Of a stretch of 64,000 nucleotides of DNA, positions 4,584 to 25,495 are shown in pieces (within the stretch, counting starts at the first letter, position 1; the number at the start of each line of letters is the position of its first letter). The stretch is taken from positions 1,063,404 through 1,127,403 of the forward strand of contig OY969110.1 of NCBI GenBank assembly GCA_963697995.1, given 5' to 3'. The translations under genes were made by a program, and so were the position numbers. Source of the stretch: an uncultured Chlamydiae bacterium (GTDB taxonomy: Bacteria; Chlamydiota; Chlamydiia; Chlamydiales; JAJFMB01). Below the pieces are notes generated by a model that did not search any database, was not told the origin of the DNA, and saw nothing but the letters and a program-made list of their open reading frames with translations.

Positions 4584-5747
4584 ATGCGAAACGTGTTTTT
4601 ATGTCTTATTTTGTTATTTTCTTTTTTACAAGGTAAAGAGAAAACGATTTGCCTTAATATGATTGTTAAAAATGAAGCGCATGTGATTAAGAGATGTTTA
4701 GCTTCAGCTAAACCTTTAATCGATCACTGGGTCATTGTGGATACAGGGTCTACTGATGGCACTCAAGCCATTATTAAGGAGTTTATGAAAGGCATTCCTG
4801 GGGAGCTTTACGAGCGTCCTTGGGTAAATTTTGGGCACAACCGGAGTGAGGCTTTAGATTTGGCAAAAGGAAAGGGCGATTATGTTCTTTTTGTCGATGC
4901 CGATGAGGAGTTTGCCTTTGATCCTGGCTTTAAGTTTCGCAATTTATCGCAAGACAGCTACCTTATGGTGATCGATCATGGGGGAAGTCACTATTTTCGC
5001 AGGCAGTTGATCAACAACAAGTTAAATTGGTGCTGGAAGGGGGTTTTGCACGAGTATTTGGACTGTCCCTTAGCAAAAACGGAGGGTAAGATCGATGGGA
5101 TTTCGACGATTTACCGCTCAGAGGGAGCCAGGTCCTTAGATCCGAAAAAATATGAGAAGGATGCTGCTGTGCTTGAGAAAGCTCTTATAGATGAACCGGA
5201 CAATGTGAGGTATATGTTTTATTTAGCGCAAAGTTATAAAGATGCAGGAAATATGGAGAAGGGGATCGAATGGTACGAGAAGAGGGCAAAGATGGGGGGA
5301 TGGGACCAGGAGGTCTTTTGGTCGCTCTACCAAGTGGCGAGAATGAAAGACCGTCCTGGTGTACCTGATAACGAGATTATCGATGCTTATTTAAAGGCGT
5401 ACCATTACCGTCCAAGTCGAGTTGAGCCTTTGGCCCGTTTATCGAGCTTTTACCGCATTCGCAACCAGTACTTGTTAAGTTATTTGGTGGCAACCCATGC
5501 GATGCAAACGCCCCCATCGGATGATATTTTGTTTGTCGAGACTGATTTGTGTACTTATTGGCCTCCCTTTGAGGCTTCGATTTCAGCTTACTGGCTTGGC
5601 AAATACGACGAGTCGTTTAAGCTTTGCGAGAAGCTTGCAAACGATAAGGATCTTCCCGATTGTTTAAGAGGGTATGTTGAGGGAAACTTAAAATTTGCTA
5701 AGGAAAAGATGAATAGTGATCCTCTCTTTAAAGTGGCCATAAAATAG
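4584..5747 (+). CDS. GT2-family glycosyltransferase with a TPR-like C-terminal half and an N-terminal signal/anchor
   Basis: ICLNMIVKNEAHVIKRCLASA...VIVDTGSTDGT...VLFVDADEEF is a GT-A fold with a DxD-type motif. The C-terminus carries TPR-like helices (YMFYLAQSYKDAGNMEKGIEWYEKR). The N-terminus is MRNVFLCLILLFSFLQG. Confidence 0.7.
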   Translation: MRNVFLCLILLFSFLQGKEKTICLNMIVKNEAHVIKRCLASAKPLIDHWVIVDTGSTDGTQAIIKEFMKGIPGELYERPWVNFGHNRSEALDLAKGKGDYVLFVDADEEFAFDPGFKFRNLSQDSYLMVIDHGGSHYFRRQLINNKLNWCWKGVLHEYLDCPLAKTEGKIDGISTIYRSEGARSLDPKKYEKDAAVLEKALIDEPDNVRYMFYLAQSYKDAGNMEKGIEWYEKRAKMGGWDQEVFWSLYQVARMKDRPGVPDNEIIDAYLKAYHYRPSRVEPLARLSSFYRIRNQYLLSYLVATHAMQTPPSDDILFVETDLCTYWPPFEASISAYWLGKYDESFKLCEKLANDKDLPDCLRGYVEGNLKFAKEKMNSDPLFKVAIK

Positions 5748-6010
5748 ACATCTGTTTTGAGTTTTTTAACAAGAGATTGTGTTGAAGTGATGGAATCATT
5801 CTTTCAACTTGGCAAAGTTGCCAAGTAAATTGAAGGTTTTGCCGCAAAAAAAACATGATTGATAGGATAAACATGATATGAAGGATAACCTTTGTGTCGG
5901 GATGATGCTATTAATCCAACCTAAACGCTTCATGTACTTTAAGACTTGGGAGCTGTCGAACGAAAAGTGTATGTTTGCATGCCCCCCCTTTTTTGGGCAG
6001 AGCCCAAAAA

Positions 6011-6106
6011 CACTAAAGGAAAGGAAAAGTTTTTTAAAAAAGCAAAATCGAGAGGGGCTCAATAAAGCTTCGTTGCTTTTTTAAAAACTTTTCCTTTCCT
6101 TTAGTG
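6011..6106. repeat. Near-perfect 34/35-bp inverted repeat with a 27-nt loop, the core of a multi-hairpin intergenic element
   Basis: The left arm cactaaaggaaaggaaaagttttttaaaaaagcaa (6011-6045) is the reverse complement of 6073-6106 except for one extra T. It is flanked by hairpins at 5991-6009 and 6107-6123, and by a C7 run (5982-5988) and a G6 run (6124-6129). Confidence 0.8.
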
Positions 6107-6398
6107 TGGCGCGGTTTGCGCCAGGGGGGTAGTTCCTAAGCTTTAGGGACACCTTTGCTACTTCAATAGTGACAAGCACCCGAAAAGAGCTTGGGTAGAT
6201 GCGAAATAGGGTAAATTCTCTTTTCCTTTATCAAGCCTATCAAGTGTATCCGATTTATCATGTTTTTACTTCTTGAGGAGTAAAAAAACGTGCGCCCATT
6301 TGTGATATTTAGCAAAATTTTTGAAACTCAAATTGAAACCTTTGTAGATAGAGTACCCTTTCGAGAGAGGTCTATTTTATTCCTAATATGAGCTTAAG

Positions 6399-7940
6399 TT
6401 ATTGCGTTAAGGTGAGCGATTTTTTAACTTCGTCCACATCCACAAGGGCAATATACGCTTCTTTGTCTTCAACGCCGAGCGTTACAGCTATATGTTTTCC
6501 TTCGTGATCTAAACTCATCCCTGCGCAGTATTCGATGCCAATAGTTTTGATGTAAAATAAGGGGGAGGCTTTTGTGATTTCGAATTTTTTATTGAGGAAA
6601 ATAAAGCGATGAAGGTAGTAGCGTCTATCGGTGTAGGCCACTTCGTGTACAATAACTAGGTAGCCGTCATCGAAGGGAACAGGGCCGGCTGATCCTCTAA
6701 ATCGGGAAGTGTCTAAAAATGAGTTTGTTTCGATTACTTTTTTTGTGGTTCCCGTGATGGGATCCACTTTAAAGACAATTAAGGGATCGTATGAATAGAT
6801 CGCATGAATTTGTTGGTTTAGGACAAATGGAAGCCAGTTTTTTTCACACCGTTTTGGATCGGGTCCTTTAAGAGGAGTCATTTGCGTAATGCTTGCATCT
6901 TCTCCAATTTTACCAAGACCTATCTGAATCGTGTTGTTTGGATTGGCATCGACAAGCGAGCTTGTGAACCAATTCTCCCCATTGAACTTAAACAGGCGGC
7001 AATCCTCTTTCCCTTCGGCGTACCACCAGGGAAATTTGGGGTAGTTTGATTTATCGAGAATCTCTTCTTGCGAGAGGCGCTTAAATGATTTATCCATCGA
7101 AATAAGAAAATTGCGGGTGACGATTTTCTTGTTATTAGGATCGCGGGACCAGAAGTGTTTTGCATTTTTTTGCCCATAGTTGACGGTTCTACAAATCACA
7201 TCGTACCCATTCTCCGTCTTTTGGATCGAAGGGTTCATGGGATTGAAGTATTCAGTGTCAGTGATTTTAGGAAGCTGCACATCGACTGGGATAAGGGTTG
7301 CCTTAAGCTGCTTTGAATAGAAAATCGCGTTGTTGAGAGCCTGGTTTTTTGTGTACCAGGGAGCCTCCTTGTTGACAAGAAGGCGATTGAGCGCTTGATA
7401 CCCCTCCTCTTTGTAAGGAGTGTAAAAGCTTGCAATCGAGAGTTCCTCGTCGAGAAGGTAGCTGTAAACTTCTTTTGACATTAACGGGGTAAAAGTTTTA
7501 GGTTTTGGAAGAGCTTTTCCTTGTCTTGCATAAAAAGTGGCCATCTCATTTTGACCTTTATACCTAAAAAAACGTGCCAGCTCGTAGAGAGCTTCAGCTC
7601 TTTTGGGATTGAGTTGAAATGCTTTGGTAAACGCCTCTTCTGCGCGGTTAAGCTCCTTTTTCTCTTCATAACATTTTCCAAGGGTCAAATAGCTTCGCCA
7701 CACCTCTTCACTTAAATCTCCCCTTTCAACTCTCTTCTCAAGCCATTTCATCGAAGTATTGATGAGACCTAATTTTTTACTTGTTTCCCCCAAGTAAAAC
7801 ATCGTATGGGGATTGTTTGGATCCTTCTCAATCAGGTTTAAGAGTTTGACAAGATTTTTTTCCGTCTTGTCGGTATCTGCTAAGAGAAGTCCTGGTATTA
7901 CAAGTAAAAGAAGGATGCGGTACATGAAAAAAAGCCTCAT
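6399..7940 (-). CDS. Signal peptide plus TPR N-domain plus conserved ~300-aa C-domain (possibly a GH130/DUF377-like beta-propeller); paralog 1 of 3
   Basis: 513 aa with N-terminus MRLFFMYRILLLLVIPGLLLA. TPR-like helices are present (MFYLGETSKKLG...LGKCYEEKKELNRAEEAFTKAFQLNP). C-domain motifs are NPSI, RTVNY, EDCRLF, EKNWLPF, IYSYDP, GSAGPVPFDDGYLVIVHE, YLHRFIFL, SPLFY and GVEDK. Confidence 0.6.
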   Translation of the reverse strand: MRLFFMYRILLLLVIPGLLLADTDKTEKNLVKLLNLIEKDPNNPHTMFYLGETSKKLGLINTSMKWLEKRVERGDLSEEVWRSYLTLGKCYEEKKELNRAEEAFTKAFQLNPKRAEALYELARFFRYKGQNEMATFYARQGKALPKPKTFTPLMSKEVYSYLLDEELSIASFYTPYKEEGYQALNRLLVNKEAPWYTKNQALNNAIFYSKQLKATLIPVDVQLPKITDTEYFNPMNPSIQKTENGYDVICRTVNYGQKNAKHFWSRDPNNKKIVTRNFLISMDKSFKRLSQEEILDKSNYPKFPWWYAEGKEDCRLFKFNGENWFTSSLVDANPNNTIQIGLGKIGEDASITQMTPLKGPDPKRCEKNWLPFVLNQQIHAIYSYDPLIVFKVDPITGTTKKVIETNSFLDTSRFRGSAGPVPFDDGYLVIVHEVAYTDRRYYLHRFIFLNKKFEITKASPLFYIKTIGIEYCAGMSLDHEGKHIAVTLGVEDKEAYIALVDVDEVKKSLTLTQ

Positions 7941-9448
7941 TTGATTGAAAGATTATTTATTACAGACTCAACAGGAATAAGAGCTATAAAAGACGTTTTG
8001 TCTTCAACTCCTAAGGTGAGGACAACGTTTTTTTCCTCGTGGTCTAAAGTCATTCCTGAACAGTACTCAACCCCAATTGTTTTAAAGTAAAAGAGGGGAG
8101 AAGCTTTTGTGATGCGGAACTCTTGGTCTAAAAAGAGAAATCTGTGGTAGTAGAAAAATTTTCCTGCAAGAGCTCTTTCGTGCACGATGACAAGATAGCC
8201 CTCTTCAAAAGGGATGGGTCCAGAAGATCCTTGAAATCTGGTTCCATCAAAGGGACACTTGTGTTCTACCACTTTTTCACATTTTCCTGTGTCAAGATCG
8301 GGTTCTAAGATAATGGTTGGATCGTATGAGTAAATCATTTGGATCCGATCGTTGTGAACAAAGGGTAACCAGTTTTTTTCCGCTCTTTTGGGATTGGGGC
8401 TATTTAAAGGAATCACTTGTCCCGTCTTAAGTTTTCCTAAGGCTACTTGAGGCGTATGAGTGGGATTAGCTTCTGTAACAGCACAACTAAAAAAGTTCTC
8501 CCCATGATAAGAGAAAAGGCGGCAATCCTCATTGCCTTCCATTTCCCAAGGGAATTTGGTGTAGGTGGAGTGATCAAAGATCTCTTCTTCTGACGTGATG
8601 AGAAACTCTTTATCCGTTGTGACAAAAAGGTTGCGACTTATAAAGATGTATCGTTTGGGATCGCGGGTTAGTAAGCTTTGATTGTTCTCTTCATTGATTT
8701 TTTCATAATTGACTAAGCGGCAAATCAGTTCATACCCTGATTCTGTTCTCTGGATCGAAGGGTTAATAGGATAATACGATTCTTTTTCATCGATTTTTGG
8801 ACAGGTGACATTTAAGGGAATATAGGTGGCATCGATAGGTTTGATATAATAGCGAAGATTGCTAAAAGCTTGATTTTTGATGTGGAGGGGAGCCTCTTTG
8901 TTTAAAAGTAGTCTGTTGATCGCATGAAGCCCCTCCTCTTTTTGAGGGGAGTAGAAGGCGGCAATCGAGAGCTCCTCATCTAAGAGGTAGCTAGACACTT
9001 CCCTAGAAATGATCGATGACTCCTCCTCTGGTAGGGAGATTTTTTTTCCTTCAAGGGCATAATAAGTGCAAAGTTCATTTTGCTCTTTTTTCCTGGCAAG
9101 TTTTGCCAAATGATAGAATGGCTCAGCAAATTTGGGAGCGACTTCTCTTGCTTTAAGATAAAACCCATTGGCCTTATCGAAATCTTTTTTCTCCTCATAG
9201 GCTTTTCCAAGGGCAAGATAGGAGAGCAAAAGTTCCTTTGGAGTGCCTCCTAGGTCAATTTTTTTTTGGATCCACTTTAACGAAAGGTCTGTTAGACCCA
9301 AATTTTTGTACGTTTCAGCAATCTCTTCCATCAGATGAGCATTTTTGGGGTCGCAATCTTGCTTTTTTAGGAGCGCTAGAAGATCGTCCTCCGTTGTAGC
9401 TAGAAGAAGAGATGAGAAGGTTGAAAGGAGAAGAAAAGTTCGTAGCAT
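7937..9448 (-). CDS. Signal peptide plus TPR plus the same conserved C-domain; paralog 2 of 3
   Basis: 503 aa with the same architecture and motifs as 6399..7940 (EKNWLPF, GSSGPIPFEEGYLVIVHE, YYHRFLFL, SPLFYF, GVEDK). A 4-nt overlap with the downstream paralog suggests co-translation. Confidence 0.6.
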   Translation of the reverse strand: MLRTFLLLSTFSSLLLATTEDDLLALLKKQDCDPKNAHLMEEIAETYKNLGLTDLSLKWIQKKIDLGGTPKELLLSYLALGKAYEEKKDFDKANGFYLKAREVAPKFAEPFYHLAKLARKKEQNELCTYYALEGKKISLPEEESSIISREVSSYLLDEELSIAAFYSPQKEEGLHAINRLLLNKEAPLHIKNQAFSNLRYYIKPIDATYIPLNVTCPKIDEKESYYPINPSIQRTESGYELICRLVNYEKINEENNQSLLTRDPKRYIFISRNLFVTTDKEFLITSEEEIFDHSTYTKFPWEMEGNEDCRLFSYHGENFFSCAVTEANPTHTPQVALGKLKTGQVIPLNSPNPKRAEKNWLPFVHNDRIQMIYSYDPTIILEPDLDTGKCEKVVEHKCPFDGTRFQGSSGPIPFEEGYLVIVHERALAGKFFYYHRFLFLDQEFRITKASPLFYFKTIGVEYCSGMTLDHEEKNVVLTLGVEDKTSFIALIPVESVINNLSIK

Positions 9449-9457
9449 GTAGTGACC

Positions 9458-11436
9458 TCATTTTATGGAAAGATGTTTTTCAATCGATTCTTTTGGGAAA
9501 ATAGCAAGATACGCCTCTTTATCCTCTTTTCCAAACGAAACAATGATCTCATTTTCGTTGTGGCTCCAAGTCATTCCACAAGCAAATTCAATTCCTGGAG
9601 CTGTAAAGTAGAAAAGAGGGGAGATTTTGGTGATTTGAAACTCTTTGTTTAGAAAGAGGAATCGGTGGAGGTAGTTTCTTCTGTCGGTGATGTTGAGCTC
9701 GTGTATCAAGACCAAGTATCCATCGTCAAAAGGGATTGGGCCGGCAGAGCCACTAAAATTTGAGCAATCAAACTTTGAGTCGGTTTGGTAGGCAATTGTA
9801 TGGGAGCCCGTGTTGGGATCGAGTTTATAAATAGTGAGCGGCTCGTATTTATAAATGGCAAAGATTTCGTTTTGAAAAGCGAAGGGTAACCAGTTTTTTT
9901 CTTTTCTCAAAGGATTGGGGCTGACAAGAGGTGTCAGTTTATCGCAACAGGTGTGATCTTTTGAGATTTTCCCAAGAGCCATTTGCGTGGTATTAAGAAA
10001 ATTGCCGTCACTAATTGAGCAAGTAAACCAATCATCTCCTTTAAAATCAAAGAGATGATAATCCTCTTGTCCAATGACGGGATAGTATGGAAACCTTTCA
10101 TAAACTGCGTTGTCGACGATCTCTCTTTTTATAAGAGGAGTGAATTCTTTGTCAGTTGAGACTAGAATGTTTTTGTTGATAAAGATGCGTCCTCCTATTG
10201 GCCAATAATCCATCCCATTTTTGTGGTCATAGTTGACAAGGCGGTAATTGATGTCGTACCCCGTTTCTGTTTTTTTGATAGAGGGGTTTGTTGCAAAAAA
10301 GGGGTACTCTGGATTGAGGGGAATGGGAACAATTTTAGCTTGAAACTCTTCCATCGGCAAAAAGAGGCGGCTTGGAGTGAGCTTTTTCGAGGAGGGTTCA
10401 GAAGGGGGCGTTTTAATGAGTGTCATCATTGTGGTGATAAAATGATCTATAGTAAATACTTTTGCTTCTTCACTTTCAAGATACGCTCTAATATGAGTGA
10501 GGTACTCTTCATACTCCTCTTTATCCATGGTCTTTAAGAAGGTATAAAGATCTTCTTGGCTCTCAAAATCTTCTCTTGCAATGAAGCAATTTTTAGGAAT
10601 ATAGGAAGTGATATTTGGAGCGCCGTAATAGATAGGAACGACTCCTGCTTGAAAACAGGCGAAGATTTTTTCTGTGATATATCCTGGAATCCCTTTACAG
10701 TTTTCGTAGGCAAAAGCAAACCGGTAATTTTTTAAGACTTCGATTTTCTCTTTGTGGTCCTCCTGGGATCATTCCCTTGTAGATACTTAAGCCAAGAGGC
10801 GCCCATCCACTTGAGCCGAAAAGTTCAAAATCTTGCTTGTGGTGTGTTTCAAAAAAATCAGCCAGAATTTTTCTTTCACGCGTAGAGCGCATTTGGAGCT
10901 CGGGAGTATCCAAAACTTGCGACCATTGCGCAAAGTTTTTTGTTTTCAAAAGGGACGATGTCCTTCGTCATAGGGTAGAGGACAGGGTAGTGAATTTTGA
11001 AGTATTTATTATTGTCGACTAAGGTGTCGAGGACTGTGTAAATTTTTCCGAAATATTTGTGGTATTCAACATCGTAATCTTGCGGCATTGTCGCTGGGGG
11101 CTCCCAAAGAAATAAGATGAGTTTTTCTTTCGGATATTGGATCAAAAACTGTTCTGGAACTGATCTATCAAATGAGATCAAATAGTCGACTTGCGAGTGA
11201 TGCGGAGGGGGAGAATAGGGGTTACCTACTTGGAGATTAAACTCCTCATTTTTTGCAACCCGATAGAATTGCCGGGTCGCATCCTGATTGTAGTATATGG
11301 GAGGGCCTTCCCCTTCAAAAAGATGGTCTCCCCAAAAAAGAGGATAAAAGAGTGTGGTTTTTGTGGTCTCCACGGCGTTAAGCGTTACGAATAAGAAAAA
11401 AAACAAAATGGGCATCATCACCACCACTCTCCTCAA
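9458..11436 (-). pseudogene. GT10 (alpha-1,3-fucosyltransferase-like) domain fused to the conserved C-domain (paralog 3 of 3); the GT10 part is interrupted by two frameshifts
   Basis: Four pieces in three frames read as one protein. (1) 10876..11436 gives MRRVVVMMPILFFFLFVTLNA...ENKKLCAMVASF. (2) 10695..10949 gives RSTRERKILADFFETHHKQDFELFGSSGW. (3) The frame of ORF 9458..10528 is open upstream to about 10770 and encodes the GT10 signature EKIEVLKNYRFAFAYENCKGIPGYITEKIFACFQAGVVPIYYGAPNI (10726-10622). (4) It continues without a stop into the C-domain (NPSI, EKNWLPF, GSAGPIPFDDGYLVLIHE). Confidence 0.7.
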
Positions 11437-11515
11437 TTAAAGTGAGCCATTTTAAAGCTCTTAAATTTTTTTAGCTATAAAAATTTAAATAGGAAAAAAA
11501 AGAAGCGTTTGGGTA

Positions 11516-13508: not shown

Positions 13509-13526
13509 TAGAGAGGAAAGTATTGC

Positions 13527-14237: not shown

Positions 14238-14247
14238 GGGAGGATCG

Positions 14248-17487: not shown

Positions 17488-17524
17488 TATTGAAATAAGA
17501 AAATGATTTGATAAAAGAGGGAAT

Positions 17525-17609: not shown

Positions 17610-17678
17610 TTATTAGAAAAAAACTATTAGTGTATAAATAGTTTCAGGAAGAATTCTCTCAAAAACAGGCTTAAAAAG

Positions 17679-19001
17679 TCAAAGGTTTTTAAGCGCTTCT
17701 ACTATTACGGAAAACCCTTTTTTTAAACGGCTTATGGAAAAATGTTCGTTTGGTGCATGGATCTGATCCCCTGGAAGACCTAACCCGAGCAGGATCACTT
17801 CGGCACCGCTAATTTCGGCAAGTTCTGAGACTATTGGAATTGATCCTCCTTGCAGAAGAGATTCGCACGGTTTTTGAAATACTTTTTCAAATGCACGTTT
17901 AAATGCAAGAGCCCCTCGGGAGTTTGGATTGGCTCGAATCGCTTTTCCACACCCCTCGTGGATTTTGATGTCGATCCCAAGCCCTGGGGGAGTTAGTTGA
18001 ATGAGAAACTTCTTTAAACTCTCCCCAATTTTTTTAGGATCCTGCTTTTCAACCAACCGACAAGACAGTTTTGCAAACGCCTTGGCAGGGATCACTGTCT
18101 TAAATCCCTCACCGCTATAGCCGCCTGAAAGGCCATTGATCTCAAGCGTAGGTCTTGCTCCCACGCGCTCTCCGGGAGAAAAAGCCTTCTCACCCCCATT
18201 GGCCACAGCTCCAAAAAGAGCCATATACTCGTTTTCATCAAAGTCTAAGGCCAAAAGTTTTCTCTCCTCCTCTTTAAGGGGGATCACATCGTCGTAGAAA
18301 TGGGGAACCATAACGCGCCCCTCTTTATCCCGAAGATGACTTAAAATTTCGACTAAGGCGTGTAGGGGATTGTAGGCAATTCCGCCGTGTTGCCCCGAGT
18401 GTAAGTCGGTGTGAGATCCCGTAATGACGACGTCGCATGTTAATATTCCCCGAACCCCTAAAGTGATCGCAGGTCTCTCTTCGTTTTTTAGGCTTAAGTC
18501 GACAATCGCCAAAGTGTCCGCTTGAAGAGCCTCTTTTTTTTGGGGGAGAAGTTTTGATAACTCATGACTGGCACTCTCCTCTTCCCCTTCGATGATCAGT
18601 TTGATGTTGACGTTTTTTGGGTTATTTTTTAAGAATTCTTTGACCGCTTTGATAGTATAGAGGCATTGCCCTTTATTGTCCTGGGCTCCCCTTGCAAAGA
18701 CGAGATCATTCTCGATCGTTGGGGTAAAAGGGGGGCTTTTCCAAAGTTCTAATGGATCGACTGGTTGAACATCGTAGTGGTTGTAGATGAGAATAGTCGG
18801 TTTATCGGGACCTGCTTTTAAATTTTTGGCAAAAACGACTGGTGGACCCTCCGTTTGCCAAATCTCTACGTCAAGAGATGATTCTTCAAGTTTTTCCTTT
18901 AACCAAAGCGCGGCCTTTTCCATTTCAGATTGCAATGATTTATCGGCACTGATTGTTTTGAAGGTAAGGAAGGTCAGGTAATCGTCTAAGAGTTCATTCA
19001 T
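17679..19001 (-). CDS. M20-family metallopeptidase/dipeptidase (ArgE/DapE/CPG2-like)
   Basis: 440 aa. PTILIYNHYDVQPVDPLELWKSPPF, GAQDNKGQ, IEGEEE and HAPNEH are typical M20 metal-binding and catalytic patterns. Confidence 0.75.
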   Translation of the reverse strand: MNELLDDYLTFLTFKTISADKSLQSEMEKAALWLKEKLEESSLDVEIWQTEGPPVVFAKNLKAGPDKPTILIYNHYDVQPVDPLELWKSPPFTPTIENDLVFARGAQDNKGQCLYTIKAVKEFLKNNPKNVNIKLIIEGEEESASHELSKLLPQKKEALQADTLAIVDLSLKNEERPAITLGVRGILTCDVVITGSHTDLHSGQHGGIAYNPLHALVEILSHLRDKEGRVMVPHFYDDVIPLKEEERKLLALDFDENEYMALFGAVANGGEKAFSPGERVGARPTLEINGLSGGYSGEGFKTVIPAKAFAKLSCRLVEKQDPKKIGESLKKFLIQLTPPGLGIDIKIHEGCGKAIRANPNSRGALAFKRAFEKVFQKPCESLLQGGSIPIVSELAEISGAEVILLGLGLPGDQIHAPNEHFSISRLKKGFSVIVEALKNL

Positions 19002-19093
19002 ATTTAGTCTAAATTTTCCTTTTTAAAATTGAAGGGAAACATGTTATTCCTCTTGTTATTTTAAAGGTTTTTTGATATAACATTAAAACTCAG

Positions 19094-20086
19094 ATGTCTA
19101 ACTGTCAAGCTTTTCTAGATTCTCATACCGATTGGCGAAAAATTTATCAGAAAAATTTTCGCAATCTCCATTCGTTGCTCTCATTTTTAGAGTTAACGGA
19201 GAAAGAGCTTCCCTTAATTTCTAAAAAGTCTCATTTTGCTCTAAATGTGCCCTTACGGCTAGCTCTTAAGATGAAGAAGCGCTCTCTTGAGTGTCCTATT
19301 GTAAGGCAGTTTCTTCCTTTGATCGATGAAGAAGTGACCCTTTCAGGTTTTACAACAGATCCTCTTCAAGAGATGAGTTGTCGAAAAGAAGCTAAATTAT
19401 TGCATAAGTATGAAGGGCGCGCTCTTCTTGTGTGTACAAGTGCCTGCGCTATGCATTGTCGCTACTGTTTTCGGCAAGATTTTGATTACGAAGTTGAGGA
19501 TAAGAGTTTTGATAAAGAGCTTAAGTATATTGACTCTCAAAAAAGCCTTTCCGAAGTGATTTTAAGTGGGGGAGACCCTCTTTCTCTCTCTAATCGTACA
19601 TTGGGTGAACTTTTTTTTAAAATTTCAAAAATGTCCCACGTTAAAAGAGTCAGATTTCATACCCGTTTTCCAATAGGCATTCCAGAGAGGATCGATGAGG
19701 AGTTTTTAAATTTGATTGAGACGGCTCCTTTCACTGTTTTTTTCGTTGTCCATGTCAATGTGGCAGAAGAGATGGACGAGGAGATTTTTAAGAAATTGAC
19801 GGCTCTTCGAAAGAGGGGTGCCATTATTTTAAGTCAAACGGTTTTGTTAAAGGGTGTAAACGATTCAAAAGAGGCTTTAAAAAACCTTTTTGAAACTCTA
19901 GTCAACGAGGGAGTGACTCCCTATTACCTTCATCAATTAGACCGAGCTAAGCGGGTTTCTCACTTTGAGGTTTCTATTGAGAGAGGCAAAGAACTTTTGG
20001 CGCAAGTGGCAAAAGAGCTCTCAGGTTATGCTCTGCCCCGTTTTGTCCAAGAGATTCCAGCAAAACCTGGAAAAGTGTGGCTTTAA
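19094..20086 (+). CDS. epmB: KamA-family radical-SAM lysine 2,3-aminomutase-like protein (EF-P beta-lysylation EpmB type)
   Basis: 330 aa with the CxxxCxxC cluster CAMHCRYC, plus VILSGGDPL and the length typical of EpmB/YjeK. Confidence 0.7.
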   Translation: MSNCQAFLDSHTDWRKIYQKNFRNLHSLLSFLELTEKELPLISKKSHFALNVPLRLALKMKKRSLECPIVRQFLPLIDEEVTLSGFTTDPLQEMSCRKEAKLLHKYEGRALLVCTSACAMHCRYCFRQDFDYEVEDKSFDKELKYIDSQKSLSEVILSGGDPLSLSNRTLGELFFKISKMSHVKRVRFHTRFPIGIPERIDEEFLNLIETAPFTVFFVVHVNVAEEMDEEIFKKLTALRKRGAIILSQTVLLKGVNDSKEALKNLFETLVNEGVTPYYLHQLDRAKRVSHFEVSIERGKELLAQVAKELSGYALPRFVQEIPAKPGKVWL

Positions 20087-20208: not shown

Positions 20209-21504
20209 ATGTCATTTAGATTTTTTTTTCTCTGTTTTGGGATTTTAGGAATACAATTTTTAAATGCGGCAAGTTCAATAGGTGTCGTTTCTTTAGCTAT
20301 TGGAGACTCGTATAAGGCCCTTGTCGAGAATGCGATAAAAAATAAAGTGCAATACTGTCAGCTTCACGGTTACGACTTTTATTGTCCCGAACACTCTTTA
20401 GACTCCTCTCGATCCCCCCTTTGGAGCAAAATTCCAGCAATTTTAAAAGCTATGGAAAATTCTGAGCATCAGTGGATTTTTTGGACAGATGCCGATGCTT
20501 TATTTACTAATTTTGCTTATAAGTTAGAAGAATTTATAGATGAAAACTATCTTTTTATAGTTAGTAAAGATGTTTACGATATTAATACGGGTCATTTTTT
20601 TATTCGGAATTGTGAAAGGGCAAAACAGCTATTAAGAGACATGTATGCAAGAGAAGAGTGTGTCTCTCATGAATGGGCGGAACAGATGGCTTTTATTTGC
20701 GAATATCGAGAAAAACCTGAAGTGAGGGCATTTACAAAGTTGATACCTCAACGTTTGATCAATTCATACCCTCCCGAACTGCTTCTACATAGTGACAAAC
20801 CAGATATTTGTATACATAAGAAAGGAGACTTTATTATTCATTTTCCTTCCTTGAAAGGGGAGTATTTGAAAAAGTGTATTGATACTTATGTTAAGAAAGT
20901 TGTTAATTCTTACGATTTTTTGACTTTAGGTAATTATTTTAAGCTTTATGGATTTCAGAAAGAATCGATAAATTTTTATCTGGGGGAGAAAGTCTTAACA
21001 AGGCCTAAGAGGCGACAAATGAGGGAGTGTCTTTTGGGAAAATCCTCTATTAAACGGATTGCCTGCTGGGGATTACATCGGGGAGGGGTCACTGATATTT
21101 TTTTTAGAAGGTGTCGTGATTTAGATATTTTATTGAGTTTCGATGCTATTTCTTGTCCTGAGACACTAGTGGCCAAGGAGTTTTTTTCTCGAAAATATAG
21201 AGAAAAGTTTGTTTTTTGTGAAAAAGATTGTTTAGAAGAAACTTTAGTTGCGGATAAGCCTTTTGATCTTATTTATATCGATTCTCATAGAGGTGATAAG
21301 GGGTGTTTATCTGACCTTGAAAAGATCCGTTTCTTGGCTGATTCTGAAACTATTTTGTGGATTAACAATTATACAGATTCTGTTCACGAGGCCGTGTCTA
21401 AAGCGGTCGAGAACGGGTTGATAAAAATTTTAGCTATTCATCATTCTCAAAATAAAAATGATATTCGAGTTTGGTGTGAGGCTCAATATAAAATGGAGAG
21501 GTAA
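20209..21504 (+). CDS. Two-domain protein: GT34 (GMA12/MNN10)-like nucleotide-sugar transferase plus a class-I methyltransferase-like C-domain, with an N-terminal signal/anchor
   Basis: N-domain: YCQLHGYDFY...PLWSKIPAILKAMENSEHQWIFWTDADALFTN...NTGHFFIRN...EQMAF. C-domain: FDLIYIDSHRGDKGCLSDLEK...ILWINNY, resembling the 23801/24749 family. The ATG at 20209 gives MSFRFFFLCFGILGIQFLNA. Confidence 0.6.
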   Translation: MSFRFFFLCFGILGIQFLNAASSIGVVSLAIGDSYKALVENAIKNKVQYCQLHGYDFYCPEHSLDSSRSPLWSKIPAILKAMENSEHQWIFWTDADALFTNFAYKLEEFIDENYLFIVSKDVYDINTGHFFIRNCERAKQLLRDMYAREECVSHEWAEQMAFICEYREKPEVRAFTKLIPQRLINSYPPELLLHSDKPDICIHKKGDFIIHFPSLKGEYLKKCIDTYVKKVVNSYDFLTLGNYFKLYGFQKESINFYLGEKVLTRPKRRQMRECLLGKSSIKRIACWGLHRGGVTDIFFRRCRDLDILLSFDAISCPETLVAKEFFSRKYREKFVFCEKDCLEETLVADKPFDLIYIDSHRGDKGCLSDLEKIRFLADSETILWINNYTDSVHEAVSKAVENGLIKILAIHHSQNKNDIRVWCEAQYKMER

Positions 21505-21505
21505 A

Positions 21506-22195
21506 ATGAAGTCTTTTGTTTTGTTTTTTATATTAACGGTGTCTCTTTTTAAGGGGGAGTCTCTTTTTGGTAAGAGCCTGGAAGATGTTTTTACTAGCAT
21601 TTATAAGAAGGCCCATTGGGGAAAAAATGAAAATGGGGAAGGGTCTTCAGGGGGAGGATCGACTGTTGAAGTGACTGCTGAATATCGTGCTTTTTTACAG
21701 CATTTTATGGAGGAGAATAAAATCACTTCTGTTATTGATGTGGGGTGTGGTGATTGGGAATTTTCTAAACTGATCAATTGGAGAAATATCAAGTATACAG
21801 GTTATGATATTGTTAAACCGATAATTGAAAAAAACAAAATCCAGTTTGAAACAGATACAATCTCTTTCATCCATGGCAATGCTATCAAAATCGATCTGCC
21901 TGAAGCTGATTTGTTGATATGTAAGGAAGTTTTGCAGCATTTGTCCAATAAAGAGATTGCTTTGTTTTTAAAACAACTTCCTAAATTTAAGTACGCTATT
22001 TTGGTCAACGATGTCGACCGAGATACTTTAACAAGTGAGAATAGGGATATTGCCAGCGGGGGATACAGGCTTTTGGATTTAAGAAATCCCCCTTTCTCTT
22101 TAAAGGCGATGGTTGTCTTTAACTATCAAGCACCAGATCCCCATCGGGAGATGAAGCAGGTTTTGCTCTTTGTGAATGAGGGGAAGATTGAGTAA
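21506..22195 (+). CDS. Class I SAM-dependent methyltransferase with an N-terminal signal peptide
   Basis: The ATG at 21506 directly follows the upstream stop codon. MKSFVLFFILTVSLFKG. Motif I is VIDVGCGDWEF, and DLLICKEVLQHL is also present. Confidence 0.7.
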   Translation: MKSFVLFFILTVSLFKGESLFGKSLEDVFTSIYKKAHWGKNENGEGSSGGGSTVEVTAEYRAFLQHFMEENKITSVIDVGCGDWEFSKLINWRNIKYTGYDIVKPIIEKNKIQFETDTISFIHGNAIKIDLPEADLLICKEVLQHLSNKEIALFLKQLPKFKYAILVNDVDRDTLTSENRDIASGGYRLLDLRNPPFSLKAMVVFNYQAPDPHREMKQVLLFVNEGKIE

Positions 22196-22198
22196 AAA

Positions 22199-23203
22199 AT
22201 GAGTCTAAAGTATTTTTTCTTATTTCTTATTTTTATTCAGCCTTTAAGAGGAGAAAATCGATGGGAGCCCACCGAATTTGTTTGGAATTTAGGTTTGGCT
22301 TCCCTTTGTGATGAAGGTTTAGATAAAGATCCAATCGCTTATTTTCAGGGATCGATAGGAACACCTCGTTTTGATATTGATGAGTCTTCACAAGTCGTCT
22401 GGACAAGAGCTTGTTTTATGAAGCTCTTTTGTAGTGAGGTGTTGCCAAAACTTAAAAAACCGATCGTCTTAGTGATAGGGGATGGAGATTTGTCATTTCC
22501 CTCTCAGTCGATCTCTCCTTTTGAGATGTGTCAGCTCATTGAAAATAAAAATATTCTCCATATTTTTGCTCAAAATTGCGATTATAGGGGAGAAAGTTCT
22601 AAAGTTTCCCGATTTCCAATAGGGATTGATTTTCACACGATAGCGTTTAAAAATCTCAATATTTGGGATGAAAAATCAACTTCTAAGGAGCAAGAAGCCG
22701 TTCTTAAAGGTATTTTGTCTACTTTGAAGCCCACGGATCAGCGAAAATTGGGTGCCTTTGTCGATTTTCAATTAAACGATACCATGAGATCGGGTGATAA
22801 CCAAAGGTATCTAGAGTTTGGTGAAGATCGCACTTCTATTTTTAACCGTATCGGATGCTTAAAAATGATAGATTATCCTGAGTGTCCCATGAAGCGAAGA
22901 GAGCTTTGGCAAAAAAAGGGGGAGTACGCTTTTTCTATAAGCCCCATTGGAAATGGTCTTGATTGTCACAGAACTTGGGAAGATTTGGTGTTGGGTTGTA
23001 TTGTGATTGTAAAAACTTCCCCTTTGGACCCTTTATATGAGGGGTTGCCTGTAGTGATTGTAACAGATTGGGATGAGATTACTGAAGAGAATATGAAAAA
23101 ATGGCTCGAACAATACAAAGATGCTTTTACAAATCCGAAATATAGAGAAAAACTAACAAACACTTATTGGATCAATAAAGTGAGGGATGAACTAAGGAAA
23201 TAG
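22199..23203 (+). CDS. Secreted/anchored hypothetical protein (weak glycosyltransferase-like C-terminal pattern)
   Basis: 334 aa with N-terminus MSLKYFFLFLIFIQPLRG. The C-terminal HRTWEDLVLGCIVIVKTSPLDPLYEGLPVVIV only loosely resembles GT-B/exostosin-type motifs. Confidence 0.4.
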   Translation: MSLKYFFLFLIFIQPLRGENRWEPTEFVWNLGLASLCDEGLDKDPIAYFQGSIGTPRFDIDESSQVVWTRACFMKLFCSEVLPKLKKPIVLVIGDGDLSFPSQSISPFEMCQLIENKNILHIFAQNCDYRGESSKVSRFPIGIDFHTIAFKNLNIWDEKSTSKEQEAVLKGILSTLKPTDQRKLGAFVDFQLNDTMRSGDNQRYLEFGEDRTSIFNRIGCLKMIDYPECPMKRRELWQKKGEYAFSISPIGNGLDCHRTWEDLVLGCIVIVKTSPLDPLYEGLPVVIVTDWDEITEENMKKWLEQYKDAFTNPKYREKLTNTYWINKVRDELRK

Positions 23204-23221
23204 CCTTTTGGCTATTTCCTT
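23194..23221. terminator. Perfect 12-bp hairpin spanning the stop codon of 22199..23203, between convergent reading frames
   Basis: aaggaaatagcc-tttt-ggctatttcctt. Confidence 0.55.
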
Positions 23222-23233
23222 AAAAAGGGCTTA

Positions 23234-23413
23234 CTAAAAGTTGCTGCTAGCATGAACACTCATTCTAAGCTCCTCGGCAGCTCTTGTGACTCCTTTCCTA
23301 ACCGATTCCCAATACCAGTCATCCCCGCACATGATCCCATCTTCTCTTAAGTGCTTTGACCAAGCGATAATATTTTTGTATACATTTCCTTCCGCGTGAG
23401 AAGCGTCGATATA
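23234..23413 (-). pseudogene. 3' fragment (59 codons) of a class-I methyltransferase-like gene whose 5' part is missing at the MITE boundary
   Basis: Minus-strand translation gives IYIDASHAEGNVYKNIIAWSKHLREDGIMCGDDWYWESVRKGVTRAAEELRMSVHASSNF*. It has the same D..H...DDW.W pattern as 23801..24550 and 24749..25495. The reading frame runs straight into the element terminus at 23416 with no start codon. Confidence 0.65.
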
Positions 23414-23415
23414 AA

Positions 23416-23695
23416 TAGTCGGCCCTTAAAAAAGTCCTCTCCCATAAAAAGTGCCCCTTTTGACAAAAAAGGCGTTTTACTCCTCACCAAACCCCTCAAG
23501 GAGGGGTAAGCGTCGTTTACCGCTTTTTTTGTTGCAAAAGGATCGCTTTTTCTTTGGAGAGTGCGTGTTCCATTCGCGAAATTTTTAAGTTTTTCTCATT
23601 GTCATATAATTAAACCTTGCAAAATAGGCTATGTCTTTTCTCCTCGTTAACTGCAAATTTTTCTCAAGGACCCCTTACTTTTTCAGGGCGGACTA
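23416..23695 (+). mobile_element. MITE-like element, copy 1 (280 bp, orientation A)
   Basis: The termini are tagtcggccct... and ...cagggcggacta. It aligns over its full length with 44113..44392 and, in reverse, with 25593..25872 and 51943..52203. It encodes no transposase. Confidence 0.8.
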
Positions 23696-23800
23696 GTTAA
23701 GTCTTTTGGAAGTTGTCAAGAAAGGGACTTGTCTGTTAATCTATTTTTTAGTTGAATGTGAAAAAAAGGGAAAAATGGTTTTTAACTTATGGAGAAAAGT

Positions 23801-24550
23801 ATGAAACAGAAAATGGTCGCATTTATTGGAAGTGTTGTTCTTTCTTGTGGTTATGTCCAGGCAGCTTCATTTGTACCTCTTTACAATGAAGGATTTAGAA
23901 GACCACAAACTGAGGAAGAGAGTTTTTTGGTTGAGCATGTTGAAGCAAGTCTTGCAAAAGCTGAGGTTCTTGATTCTAAGCTTGAATCTTCTCAACTTGA
24001 AATTGGTGGTATGAGTAGCAATAAGGTAAGGCATGTCTTGAATGGTCTTTGCTCTCTTTCTGAGTGCACTTATTTAGAAATTGGTGCTTACAAGGGATCT
24101 ACTTTTGTTTCAGCACTTTATGGAAATCTTGAGACGCTTGCAGAAGCGATCGTTTGTGATAACTGGTCTCAGTTTGATGCCCCACGTAGTCAGTTTTTAG
24201 ATAACTGTGAAAAGCACTTAAGTGGCTATCCATTTGCTATTCACGAATGTGATTGTTTTGCTCTCGATTTGAAATCTATTTCTCATCCTATTAAAGTGTT
24301 TTTTTACGATGGAGAGAACACTTTAGAGGCCCACGAAAAGGCTTTTACCTATTTTAATGAAGTTCTGGATGATTTGTTTATTGCAGTTGTAGATGACTGG
24401 AACTGGGATTTTGTAAGAGAAGGAACCTTCGCAGCCTTTAAAAAGCTTGGATATAGAGTTGTTTTCGAAAAGAACCTTTCCGCAAGACATAATGGTGACT
24501 TAGAAAACTATTGGAATGGTCTATACGTAGCGGTTATTTCAAAAAGTTAA
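23801..24550 (+). CDS. Class-I methyltransferase-like (Methyltransf_24-type) protein with a signal peptide; tandem paralog A
   Basis: The start at 23801 was chosen by RBS analogy (ggagaaaagtATG here, aggagaaaatATG in paralog B). MKQKMVAFIGSVVLSCGYVQA. Motifs include YLEIGAYKGSTF and FIAVVDDWNW. Confidence 0.65.
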   Translation: MKQKMVAFIGSVVLSCGYVQAASFVPLYNEGFRRPQTEEESFLVEHVEASLAKAEVLDSKLESSQLEIGGMSSNKVRHVLNGLCSLSECTYLEIGAYKGSTFVSALYGNLETLAEAIVCDNWSQFDAPRSQFLDNCEKHLSGYPFAIHECDCFALDLKSISHPIKVFFYDGENTLEAHEKAFTYFNEVLDDLFIAVVDDWNWDFVREGTFAAFKKLGYRVVFEKNLSARHNGDLENYWNGLYVAVISKS

Positions 24551-24748
24551 TTCAATTAAGGTCTTTAGGCTCTAAGAAGCTTAAAGACCCTTCACTCTCT
24601 CAACAGTTTAGAGTCCTAAGAGGTTGAGACTTCAGGGTCGACTATTTTAGTGACTCTTTTGGAACTTGTCACGAAATGAGGTTCTTTGTTAATCTGTTTT
24701 TTAATTGATAACATTTCTAAAAATTGAATTTTAATCTTAGGAGAAAAT

Positions 24749-25495
24749 ATGAATAAATGGATGACTTTACTTGGAAGTGTTATGCTTTCTTGTAGCCTTG
24801 TGGAGTCCTCTTCATTTCTAACGCTTTACAACGAAGAAGAAAGAAAACCCCAAACCGAGGAAGAGTTATTTTTGGTCGAGCATGTCGAAGCAAGTATTGC
24901 CAAAGCTGAGGCTTTAAAATCTAAGCTCGAACAACAACAGCTTGATATTGTAGGCATGTCTAGTAGTAAAGTTAGACATTTATTAAATGGTCTCTGCTCG
25001 CTTAATGGTTGTACTTACTTTGAGATTGGTGCTCACAAGGGTTCAACTTTTATTTCAGCGCTATATGGCAATTATGAGTCTATTGTTGAAGCAACCGTTT
25101 GTGATGATTGGTCTCTATTTGATGGACCTCGCGATCAATTTCTCGACAATTGTGAAAAAAATTTAAGTGGTTATCCGTTCACCATTCATGATTGCAATTG
25201 TTTTGATCTCGATTTAAAGGCTATTGCTCATCCGGTAAAAATCTATTTTTACGATGGGAATCATTCAGAAGAGGCGCAAGAGAAGGCCTTTACCTATTTT
25301 AATGAAGTTCTGGATGATTTGTTTATTGCAGTAGTGGACGATTGGAACTGGCATTTTGTAAGAGATGGCACTTTTACAGCTTTTAAAAAACTAGGATATC
25401 GAGTGGTTTTTGAGAAGCATTTGCCTTCAAGGTATAATGGTGACTTAGAAAACTATTGGAATGGTCTATACGTAGCGGTTATTTCAAAAAGTTAA
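24749..25495 (+). CDS. Class-I methyltransferase-like protein with a signal peptide; tandem paralog B
   Basis: 248 aa, collinear with paralog A, including the upstream leader region. Motifs include YFEIGAHKGSTF and FIAVVDDWNW. Confidence 0.65.
   Translation: MNKWMTLLGSVMLSCSLVESSSFLTLYNEEERKPQTEEELFLVEHVEASIAKAEALKSKLEQQQLDIVGMSSSKVRHLLNGLCSLNGCTYFEIGAHKGSTFISALYGNYESIVEATVCDDWSLFDGPRDQFLDNCEKNLSGYPFTIHDCNCFDLDLKAIAHPVKIYFYDGNHSEEAQEKAFTYFNEVLDDLFIAVVDDWNWHFVRDGTFTAFKKLGYRVVFEKHLPSRYNGDLENYWNGLYVAVISKS

Follow-up and report, generated by a model that had tools for sequence, protein, structure and literature searches.

The window which we have analysed, the whole stretch of 64 kb, contains two gene clusters in positions 4584–15217 and 20209–25495, with core genes between them. 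These include an unstranded housekeeping block (17525–20086) formed by tRNA-Ser(CGA), an M20 peptidase and an EpmB-like radical-SAM enzyme. We counted gene units in the interval 4584–25495 after bridging four single-base frame breaks. There are then 13 non-housekeeping units and all of them start with an N-terminal signal of the n-h-c (Sec) type; the M20 peptidase, the EpmB-like enzyme and the tRNA have none. Signals were called with our own rule-based sequence scan, together with the conservation of the N-termini. A strict rule is passed by 12 of the 13 units versus 4 of 32 ORFs elsewhere in the window (Fisher p=7e-7); three of these four are multi-pass membrane proteins. The only unit which fails has the N-terminus MLRTFLLLSTFSSLLLA, marginally under the hydrophobicity cut-off. 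Shine-Dalgarno-like motifs are found upstream of most signal-bearing starts, which supports these starts. A run of signal-bearing glycosyltransferases (GTs) and methyltransferases had been described here in an earlier note. Its ORFs are found at the coordinates it gave and all 13 N-terminal peptides quoted in it are present; the run is stronger than was claimed. Two ORFs without signal, 9458–10528 and 12654–13508, had been taken as exceptions, but they are frame-break artefacts. The former has no signal because it is the C-terminal part of a split signal-GT10-GH130-like protein starting at 11436, the latter because it is the continuation, beyond a single frame break, of the Glyco_trans_1_2 protein which starts at 11549.

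The left cluster starts with a protein of 387 aa (4584–5747, forward strand) which has a signal peptide (N-terminus MRNVFLCLILLFSFLQG), a GT2 domain (Pfam Glycos_transf_2, 8e-15) and TPR repeats; it shows 38% identity to residues 6–328 of signal-less viral GT2-TPR-GH130-like proteins. Three units follow on the reverse strand. Two are paralogs (direct repeat D2/D4) with a signal peptide, TPR repeats and a GH130/GT108-like five-bladed propeller: 6399–7940, with 513 aa and TPR detected by Pfam, and 7937–9448, with 503 aa. The C-terminal domain of the first one is homologous to ORF 9458–10528, whose AF2 model (pLDDT 89) matches beta-1,2-mannobiose/oligomannan phosphorylases and Leishmania MPTs in Foldseek. 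The third unit (9458–11436, about 660 aa by three-frame translation) joins a signal peptide, a GT10 fucosyltransferase and a GH130-like domain; it has two single-base frame breaks at about 10880 and 10760. After frame correction the reconstructed protein matches PF00852 (GT10) with 3.8e-16 and the fucosyltransferases 7yro and 2nzw of the PDB with about 1e-9; it contains the motif YRFAFAYENCKGIPGYITEKIF. To judge from the model, the three paralogs previously listed as TPR/unknown end in a propeller like that of GH130/GT108 mannoside phosphorylases. The earlier list of domains was incomplete: the GH130-like domain, with three copies, was overlooked and so was the A075L/GT47-like enzyme of the right cluster. 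The resemblance to GH130 mannoside phosphorylases and to the Leishmania GT108 mannogen transferases/phosphorylases lies in the five-bladed propeller (best Foldseek TM 0.53–0.57, AF2 model). However there is no Pfam GH130 match, the identity is about 12–14%, and the chlamydial proteins differ by an N-terminal TPR or GT10 fusion and a signal.

The rest of this cluster is found on the forward strand. A unit of about 652 aa (11549–13508) has a TTG start codon with AAGGAG upstream, a single frame break near 12675–12690, and combines a signal peptide with a Glyco_trans_1_2 domain (CgeB/GT1-like, Pfam 4e-8) and a CAP59-like GT-A domain. It is followed by an FkbM methyltransferase (13527–14237; PF05050 1e-18, TIGR01444), whose signal peptide has a possible lipobox by the lipobox rule. 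The last unit (14248–15217), whose frame is broken once near 14640, encodes about 322 aa with a signal peptide and a CAP59-like GT-A domain (PF11735; repeats D3 and D5–D8), and is a paralog of the C-terminal half of 11549–13508. The PF11735 score of copy b is 29.1 bits for a cut-off of 28.8; copy a lies below the cut-off.

Next to this cluster, in positions 15258–16958 of the reverse strand, there is a signal-bearing FAD amine/amino-acid oxidase of the DAO family (weak Pfam DAO match). Its AF2 model (pLDDT 90) matches glycine, sarcosine and D-amino-acid oxidases in Foldseek. It had been considered part of the glycan toolkit, but it is a core chlamydial enzyme: homologs with 60–82% identity are found throughout Chlamydiae, in neighbourhoods unrelated to GTs or glycan genes. 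In P0233 and P0244 the homologs are fused to alanine racemase and have no signal. The signal is thus missing exactly where the enzyme is fused to a cytoplasmic partner, which we count in favour of export.

In the right cluster all genes are on the forward strand. The first one (20209–21504) is a fusion of a signal peptide, a GT34 domain (XXT/Mnn10-like, PF05637 1e-29) and a class-I O-methyltransferase; its family profile matches plant XXT5/1/2 at 5e-20 to 9e-17, as well as O-methyltransferases. Then comes a signal-bearing class-I SAM methyltransferase of 229 aa (21506–22195; Methyltransf_11/25/31), with a concordant gene call in L002 and a signal-bearing homolog in L017. The third protein (22199–23203, 334 aa) has a signal peptide and is an A075L-like (GT47/RXYLT1-like) glycosyltransferase: phmmer matches it to PBCV-1 A075L at 3e-11, its family profile does so at 1.2e-26 across 240 residues, and family members show weak RXYLT1_C and Exostosin matches. 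The cluster ends with a Methyltransf_24-like protein (23801–24550; PF13578 2e-3, below the cut-off), which has a signal peptide/lipobox (VVLSC), and its tandem paralog (24749–25495, repeat D1, 76% nucleotide identity). This pair is flanked on both sides by copies of a MITE of about 285 nt with a 19-bp terminal inverted repeat (TAGTCGGCCCTGAAAAAGT), in positions 23409–23700 and, in inverted orientation, 25593–25879; the window has four copies. The MITEs reported at the right edge are therefore real, and the paralog expansion is also confirmed by the paralog pairs of the interval. The family assignments of the earlier note all hold, with Pfam support of varying strength (CAP59 copy a and Methyltransf_24 below cut-off, DAO weak).

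The N-termini have features in common. K or R precedes a hydrophobic region without charges, mostly of 11–16 residues, and the sequence after it is acidic or neutral. The residue in position −1 is A, S or G and lies immediately ahead of the first beta-strand, without a stem. Some members have a rule-based lipobox instead of a plain signal. They look like cleavable signals for SPase I/II, whereas a Golgi-style signal anchor, as formerly proposed, does not agree with the short hydrophobic regions, the small −1 residue, the lack of a stem and the lipoboxes.

The conservation of these signals is directly apparent in the homologs. In the GT34 family 54 of 58 chlamydial homologs have one, versus 1 of 54 viral and none of 8 other bacterial homologs. 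The chlamydial proteins have an N-terminal extension of 17–29 residues, while the others begin at the beta-strand itself; at this point the chlamydial genes lack a start codon. For the A075L-like family the signal is present in 28 of the 48 closest cluster representatives versus 5 of 70 more distant ones, and the viral versions of the GH130-like family lack it. Judging by these sequences, the signal is a peculiarity of the chlamydial lineage. Chlamydia-specific cysteines at two positions of GT34 co-occur (p=0.004, a statistic which ignores phylogeny), which we also count in favour of export. Related chlamydial loci have signals also on GT4, GT11, GT90, GT91, two GDP-mannose dehydratases (GMD) and a UDP-glucose dehydrogenase (UGDH); the signal-bearing GMD and UGDH are in L003 and L019. 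The families are found at 30–55% identity in chlamydial MAGs, among them those of Parachlamydiaceae and Rhabdochlamydiaceae, with many kinds of neighbourhoods; in one Parachlamydiaceae MAG GT2_TPR and GT34 lie 7.6 kb from argS. The GT34-OMT family was found only in uncultured MAGs. A eukaryote-derived toolkit had been one suggestion, but the region is not a recent island of that origin: the families are widespread in chlamydial MAGs, the GC content is only slightly low (lower at 20–26 kb), and signal-less relatives are present in other bacteria and large DNA viruses. Domain fusions (GT10 with GH130-like, GT1-like with CAP59-like, GT34 with OMT, CAP59-like with A075L-like, and the viral GT2-TPR-GH130-like) suggest that the modules are tied into one pathway.

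Several known systems can be compared. The lumenal Leloir GTs of the eukaryotic ER/Golgi share the catalytic families according to Pfam and to PDB profiles (GT34 Mnn10/XXT, GT10 FUT, GT47 exostosin/RXYLT1, GT69 Cap59/Cmt1, and GT90 and GT91 via related loci), an N-terminal hydrophobic signal which would put the catalytic domain past the membrane, and the combination of sugar addition with sugar methylation. However they are held by long uncleaved type II anchors with a stem, or have a signal combined with KDEL retention, whereas the chlamydial signals are short, cleavable-looking and stemless. In addition the chlamydial proteins branch in deep clades of their own. The glycosylation machinery of chlorovirus PBCV-1 and giant viruses (A064R, A075L and relatives) shares the family of the 334-aa protein (1.2e-26) and the fusion of GT and methyltransferase modules in multi-domain proteins; GT34-like and GT2-TPR-GH130-like proteins are present on IMG/VR giant-virus contigs. 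The viral proteins are signal-less and thought to work in the host cytoplasm, while those of the interval all have signals, and the single viral GT2-TPR-GH130 protein corresponds to two separate signal-bearing chlamydial genes. Gram-negative O-antigen, capsule and LOS loci also cluster GTs with methyltransferases, and the clusters of chlamydial relatives add GMD and UGDH. Their classical enzymes are cytoplasmic and signal-less, unlike the chlamydial units, and in the window Wzx/Wzy, an ABC exporter, an initiating phosphoglycosyl transferase and a ligase are all missing; the earlier statement that Wzx/Wzy, an initiating transferase and sugar-nucleotide genes are absent is upheld within these 64 kb. 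Finally, C. trachomatis uses UDP-glucose of the host to synthesize glycogen within the lumen of its inclusion (Gehre et al. 2016, PMC4829429). This is also a Leloir pathway beyond the chlamydial cytoplasm with a host supply of UDP-sugar; here export is predicted from sequence. The glycogen enzymes are type III secretion substrates of other families, without Sec signals, their product is an alpha-glucan, and the host transporter SLC35D2 is involved.

The best reading, at about even chances, is that exported enzymes build a methylated glycan outside the cytoplasm with host cofactors. Each enzyme would be synthesized with a Sec signal peptide, which signal peptidase I would remove or, in a few cases, a lipid anchor would replace. 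This would bring the catalytic domains to the periplasm or the cell surface, or to the inclusion lumen if a further secretion step follows. At this site the Leloir-type GTs (GT2, GT10, GT1-like, CAP59-like, GT34, A075L/GT47-like), the GH130/GT108-like mannosyl enzymes and the SAM-dependent O-methyltransferases would cooperate; the predicted product is a methylated glycan of fucose/mannose/xylose type. We infer this export, site of action, product and donor supply from the signals and enzyme families. Host nucleotide sugars, sugar-1-phosphates and SAM are proposed as donors because it is through the same space that chlamydiae are supplied with the nucleotides, NAD and SAM of the host. C. trachomatis offers precedents, with its lumenal glycogen and its import of host SAM (PMC3104491). 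ER/Golgi enzymes are fed by nucleotide-sugar transporters; in the window we found neither such a transporter nor an acceptor nor a gene dedicated to secretion. Sec-exported cofactor enzymes fit ordinary periplasmic chemistry poorly, and the FAD oxidase, the GMD with its bound NADP and UGDH, a consumer of free NAD+, are awkward cases for export.

These cofactors would be at hand if the N-termini were uncleaved tethers of a glycan-assembly metabolon at the cytoplasmic face of the inner membrane, which would use bacterial NDP-sugars and a lipid carrier; the product, perhaps a LOS extension, a capsule or a protein glycan, would be flipped by genes encoded elsewhere. NDP-sugars, SAM, NAD(P) and FAD are all present in the cytoplasm, which matters most for the GMD and UGDH of L003 and L019, and some bacterial GTs, such as WaaA, have N-terminal hydrophobic anchors. 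Nevertheless we find this arrangement unlikely: the charge pattern predicts N-in/C-out, regions of 11–16 residues cannot span a membrane, small residues are conserved at −1/−3, and the lipobox variants fit export and not anchoring at the cytoplasmic face. The 64 kb examined are part of a 2.05-Mb genome, which leaves room for flippase or ligase genes at other places, but among the annotated genes and examined ORFs of the window and loci L003–L021 we recognised none for a flippase, a polymerase or an initiating transferase. To a similarly low degree we credit the possibility that the enzymes are effectors which, after Sec export, leave by type II secretion or vesicles and remodel the glycans or glycoproteins of the host within the inclusion, an ER/Golgi-connected vacuole or the cytosol, with no bacterial glycan made. 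Their families are those of eukaryotic ER/Golgi and giant-virus glycosylation, the TPR domains could bind protein substrates, a nearby RhoGAP-domain protein suggests an effector-rich genome, and copy number and context differ strongly among genomes, as in effectors. But the sequences give no indication of secretion past the periplasm, the lipobox variants point to retention on bacterial membranes, and many GTs with O-methyltransferases and the NDP-sugar-modifying enzymes of relatives look more like equipment for making a defined glycan de novo than for editing.

It is very improbable that the region is a decaying, laterally acquired remnant, now without function and with incidental hydrophobic N-termini. 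The four frame breaks in three units, the MITEs around the right-hand methyltransferase pair and the slight fall in GC at 20–26 kb agree with decay. On the other hand ten units are intact, and signal and catalytic domain are kept together in dozens of distant chlamydial homologs. The frameshifts had been read as a mark of a fast-evolving island, but single-base breaks of the same kind interrupt the upstream essential genes ftsY and sucD, and the breaks may be indels introduced in the assembly. Should they be real, as many as three of the 13 units could have lost their function in this genome. If synthesis by exported enzymes is the true explanation, parasitic chlamydiae would make a glycan beyond their own cytoplasm from the activated sugars of the host.

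The island ORFs lie between the M50 protease gene (3848–4477) and argS (26054–27766), which is followed by two TLC nucleotide transporters. ORF calling places them at the positions given in the earlier note, and all 13 of the N-terminal peptides quoted there are present in these ORFs. The interval also has housekeeping genes: tRNA-Ser(CGA), an M20 peptidase and an EpmB-like radical-SAM gene. Two proteins appeared to be exceptions without a signal. Three-frame translation demonstrates that they are downstream pieces of signal-bearing genes, separated from their beginnings by frame breaks. ORF 9458–10528 is the C-terminal continuation of a gene starting at 11436 (minus strand), which codes for a signal peptide, a GT10 domain and then the C-terminal domain common to both TPR paralogs; it is disrupted by two single-base frame shifts, near 10760 and 10880. 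ORF 12654–13508 continues the Glyco_trans_1_2 protein, whose start is a TTG at 11549 with a Shine-Dalgarno sequence in front; the break lies near 12680. The second CAP59-like gene (14248–15217, plus strand) has one frame break, near 14640. The Logan contigs of this sequencing run (L001, L002, L152) end before each of the break sites. Frameshifts had been taken as a mark of a fast-evolving island. They are indeed present, but they are not specific to it: the essential genes ftsY (814–1879, minus strand, one A too many in an A-run at about 1450–1497) and sucD (2964–3850, plus strand, an extra A near 3640), just upstream, are equally split by single-base breaks. The breaks in these two genes are due either to assembly indel errors or to a decaying genome, which bears on how the island frameshifts are read. 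Since essential genes carry the same kind of break, assembly indels are at least as likely as pseudogenisation.

A Sec signal for SPase I/II has a positive n-region, a hydrophobic h-region of 7–15 residues, a c-region in which positions -3 and -1 are small (or a lipobox), and a total length of 15–30 residues. We have looked for such signals with a rule-based scan. With frame breaks bridged, 12 of the 13 units of the interval pass a strict rule, and by eye all 13 have a signal. Elsewhere in the window only 4 of 32 ORFs pass (Fisher p=7e-7), and three of these four are multi-pass membrane proteins. Shine-Dalgarno-like motifs are found in front of most unit starts. The uncharged hydrophobic regions are mostly 11–16 residues long, with K or R before them and acidic or neutral residues after them; position -1 is A, S or G, also in the chlamydial GT34 homologs. 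The first catalytic beta-strand begins 0–3 residues past the predicted cleavage site, so that there is no stem region. A PROSITE-type lipobox rule fits the FkbM protein and both Methyltransf_24 proteins; among the GT34 and GH130-like families it also fits a few homologs. Judged from their sequence, the N-termini have the hallmarks of SPase I/II substrates. The comparison with Golgi enzymes made in the earlier note does not hold for this feature: in a Golgi type II anchor the hydrophobic segment has at least about 18 residues and stays uncleaved, and a stem separates it from the catalytic domain, and here the segments are mostly 11–16 residues without a stem. Anchors of 18–26 residues are found in a few viral homologs. 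The start of the GT10 gene (11418–11436, minus strand) has a peculiarity: the region of its TTG start codon is TTGAGGAGA, in which AGGAGA may be the ribosome-binding site of the ATG ATG that follows; a start there would give the signal MMPILFFFLFVTLNA, with an uncharged n-region.

The domains proposed from sequence alone have been confirmed with Pfam, NCBIfam and PDB profiles: GT2+TPR, Glyco_trans_1_2, two CAP59-like GT-A modules, FkbM, GT34 with a methyltransferase, and class-I methyltransferases. The GT34 (Mnn10/XXT) unit (20209–21504, plus strand) has 104 bits for PF05637 against a cut-off of 23 and an invariant WIFWTDAD motif. Its profile matches the plant enzymes XXT5/1/2 at 5e-20 to 9e-17, and the domain is fused to a CCoAOMT-type O-methyltransferase. 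The FkbM methyltransferase is also above threshold (PF05050, 68.2 bits vs 22.7; TIGR01444, 42.5 bits vs 37.7). The GT10 fucosyltransferase (9458–11436), which has the motif FxxxFENSxxxxYxTEK, exceeds the gathering score of PF00852 only after bridging the two frame breaks (59.7 bits vs 23.9, 3.8e-16). The reconstruction matches PDB fucosyltransferases at about 1e-9; as assembled, the gene is interrupted. The assignment to CAP59/CMT1 (GT69, PF11735) is borderline: the reconstructed second copy has 29.1 bits, barely above the gathering score of 28.8, and the first copy (within 11549–13508, plus strand) has 21.6–22 bits, below it. The two Methyltransf_24 paralogs (23801–24550 and 24749–25495, plus strand) have weak profile matches.

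Two assignments are new. The C-terminal domain common to the three paralogs previously described as TPR or unknown is a five-bladed propeller in an AF2 model (pLDDT 89), with Foldseek matches at 2e-9 to 5b0p, 7fip, 9fj8 and 6q4w. The best fold matches are GH130 beta-1,2-mannobiose/oligomannan phosphorylases, a mannoside synthase and the GDP-Man-dependent MPT transferases of Leishmania. A sequence-profile search of the PDB with this family gave only TPR matches and Pfam gave no GH130 match; the putative assignment to GH130/GT108 came from the fold search. The 334-aa protein at 22199–23203 (plus strand) has no Pfam match, but it belongs to a large family (5425 representatives at E<=1e-3), whose profile aligns at 1.2e-26 over 240 residues with A075L of chlorovirus PBCV-1, a protein deposited as 'Exostosin GT47 domain-containing protein'. 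The link to GT47 is tentative: PF03016 matches one of 36 members weakly and RXYLT1_C matches seven of 36, also weakly. When the 334-aa protein was the sole query, a scan of viral sequences gave no matches. In the family searches we find fusions of the type signal-CAP59-like-A075L-like and signal-GT1-like-A075L-like, the latter sometimes with a methyltransferase. Such fusions would tie the glycan modules together functionally.

The signal is characteristic of the chlamydial lineage. We have located the start of the GT34 catalytic domain with an HMM and measured the extension ahead of it. A hydrophobic extension of 17–29 residues is present in 54 of 58 chlamydial homologs, vs 1 of 54 on large viral contigs and none of the 8 homologs from Planctomycetota, Verrucomicrobiota and Proteobacteria. 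These non-chlamydial proteins start with 'MKIA(I/V)VT...' at the beta-strand itself; in the chlamydial genes a start codon is lacking there, so that the signal must be translated. Chlamydia-specific cysteines also co-occur in the GT34 domain, which could be a weak indication of export. The A075L-like family has a similar distribution, with a signal in 28 of the 48 closest cluster representatives vs 5 of 70 more distant ones. The GH130-like proteins have viral relatives without a signal: chains of 635–725 aa with the order GT2-TPR-GH130-like, on the large-virus IMG/VR contigs L052, L055, L050 and L049, some of them labelled GVMAG. A single viral chain corresponds to two separate signal-bearing genes of the window, GT2_TPR and TPR-GH130, with 38% identity in GT2-TPR and 26–28% in TPR-GH130.

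Other chlamydial MAGs have loci, found through the GT34 family, with runs of further enzymes with signals. Locus L003 has a signal-bearing GT11, three GT4, an FkbM and two GDP-mannose 4,6-dehydratase (GMD)-like proteins. Locus L019 has a signal-bearing UDP-glucose dehydrogenase (UGDH), GT4 and BMT/GT91-like proteins, and L017 three signal-bearing GT90, a Methyltransf_24, an FkbM and a GT4. In the GMD-like genes (L003, 13494–14672 and 18030–19214) and in UGDH (L019, 6793–8199) a signal-like extension stands directly before the Rossmann motif; in the GMD-like genes it is less certain, as an alternative GTG start just downstream is possible.

The FAD enzyme at 15258–16958 (minus strand) is of a different nature. 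It had been included in the enzyme run, and we find that it is a conserved core gene which lies at this site by chance, with 60–82% identity across Chlamydiae. Its fold (AF2, pLDDT 90) is that of a DAO-family amine/amino-acid oxidase, with matches to glycine, sarcosine and D-amino-acid oxidases. In some chlamydiae it is a signal-less fusion to alanine racemase (P0233, P0244), in another genome (L151) it has a RidA neighbour, and in the other genomes no GT genes are adjacent. The signal is missing in this family exactly in the fusions to the cytoplasmic racemase. A role as a glycan enzyme (such as UDP-galactopyranose mutase or a sugar oxidase) was rejected in view of the DAO fold, the racemase fusions, the RidA neighbour and the lack of GT neighbours; the fusion and the RidA neighbour suggest oxidation of D-alanine or amino acids. 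With its predicted signal it would be a flavoprotein that is exported although it has no Tat motif, which is unusual in itself. Together with the tRNA/M20/EpmB block, this gene splits the region into two glycan clusters.

The MITEs reported at the right edge are real: an element about 285 nt long, whose 19-bp terminal inverted repeats are perfect (TAGTCGGCCCTGAAAAAGT), is present in four intergenic copies (23409–23700, 25593–25879, 44113–44406 and 51938–52203) with 84–90% identity. Two of them, in inverted orientation, bracket only the Methyltransf_24 pair. The element has no Rfam match; in the window Rfam detects the tRNA and one borderline SNORD36 match, almost certainly due to chance (39589–39671, plus strand, inside secDF; 31 bits vs 30, E=0.59). 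There are also two near-perfect intergenic palindromes, one at 6010–6107 with 31-nt arms (97% complementary) and one at 17320–17487, self-complementary over about 170 nt, beside tRNA-Ser. Outside the interval, an ORF with a RhoGAP domain (31297–32250, plus strand) codes for a putative, eukaryote-like effector; its neighbours are pdxS and a UPF0259 membrane protein.

A recent, eukaryote-derived insertion appears unlikely. The families are widespread, at 30–55% identity in Parachlamydiaceae, Rhabdochlamydiaceae and unclassified chlamydial MAGs, in different contexts and often in tandem arrays; in one Parachlamydiaceae MAG GT2_TPR and GT34 are found 7.6 kb from argS. The GC content of the interval is only slightly lower (0.35–0.41 vs 0.36–0.46 elsewhere in the window), and tRNA-Ser lies inside it, away from the edge. 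We regard the gene set as old, variable and paralog-rich. As the earlier note says, it is also unlike a classical LPS/O-antigen locus, and unlike a capsule locus: we found no Wzx/Wzy, ABC exporter, initiating phosphoglycosyl transferase or NDP-sugar synthesis genes among the island ORFs, nor, by inspection, among the other ORFs of the window. The loci of its relatives do have GMD and UGDH, but with signals.

Taken as a whole, the interpretation given in the earlier note is partly supported, and its proposal of exported enzymes which use host cofactors is the best-supported reading. The enzymes would be exported by Sec and processed, and their place of action would be the periplasm, the surface or the lumen of the inclusion. 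There they would assemble and methylate a glycan of the fucose/mannose/xylose type, with donors from the host. We infer export, compartment, donors and product alike. Chlamydiae import nucleotides and NAD via NTT transporters. The supply of donors is plausible because Chlamydiae take up host SAM (PMC3104491) and because the glycogen of C. trachomatis is synthesised in the lumen of its inclusion, with UDP-glucose supplied by the host (PMC4829429).

Loading and supply of cofactors is the main difficulty for exported enzymes which depend on FAD, NADP or NAD, and it keeps two other explanations live. The anchors may remain uncleaved and hold the enzymes at the cytoplasmic face, although the N-termini look like SPase substrates; or the secreted enzymes may be directed at the host and remodel its glycans. 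Carried to its limit, export would mean that environmental chlamydiae run complete Leloir-type glycosylation in the periplasm or the lumen of the inclusion instead of their own cytoplasm, as a bacterial counterpart of the Golgi lumen. Such a pathway would extend from nucleotide-sugar interconversion (signal-bearing GMD and UGDH) through glycosyl transfer to sugar O-methylation, and the host would provide the nucleotide sugars, SAM and NAD(P) for it. The access which parasites have to host metabolites would make this possible, yet we consider it rather doubtful.

In the textbook view of bacterial glycan synthesis, the steps which depend on nucleotide sugars and SAM take place in the cytoplasm, and the donors used beyond the inner membrane are all lipid-linked. 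Full-text literature searches gave no earlier account of Leloir GT/MT clusters with signals in Chlamydiae. Among GTDB representatives the GT34-OMT family is found only in uncultured MAGs, which may explain this gap. The enzyme families are known ones in an unexpected topological setting, an observation which is confirmed and generalised here; its weight depends on export, which is predicted. The same modules are signal-less in viruses and free-living bacteria, have a signal anchor in eukaryotes and a putatively cleavable signal in chlamydiae, a clean comparison which bears on the debated gene traffic among chlamydiae, giant viruses and eukaryotes. If export is true, a phylum-level set of exported Leloir glycosyltransferases, methyltransferases and NDP-sugar-modifying enzymes would break the cytoplasm rule. 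It would point to a new way for intracellular bacteria to exploit host metabolite pools, and it would define a glycan of the surface or the inclusion with a possible part in the interaction with the host.
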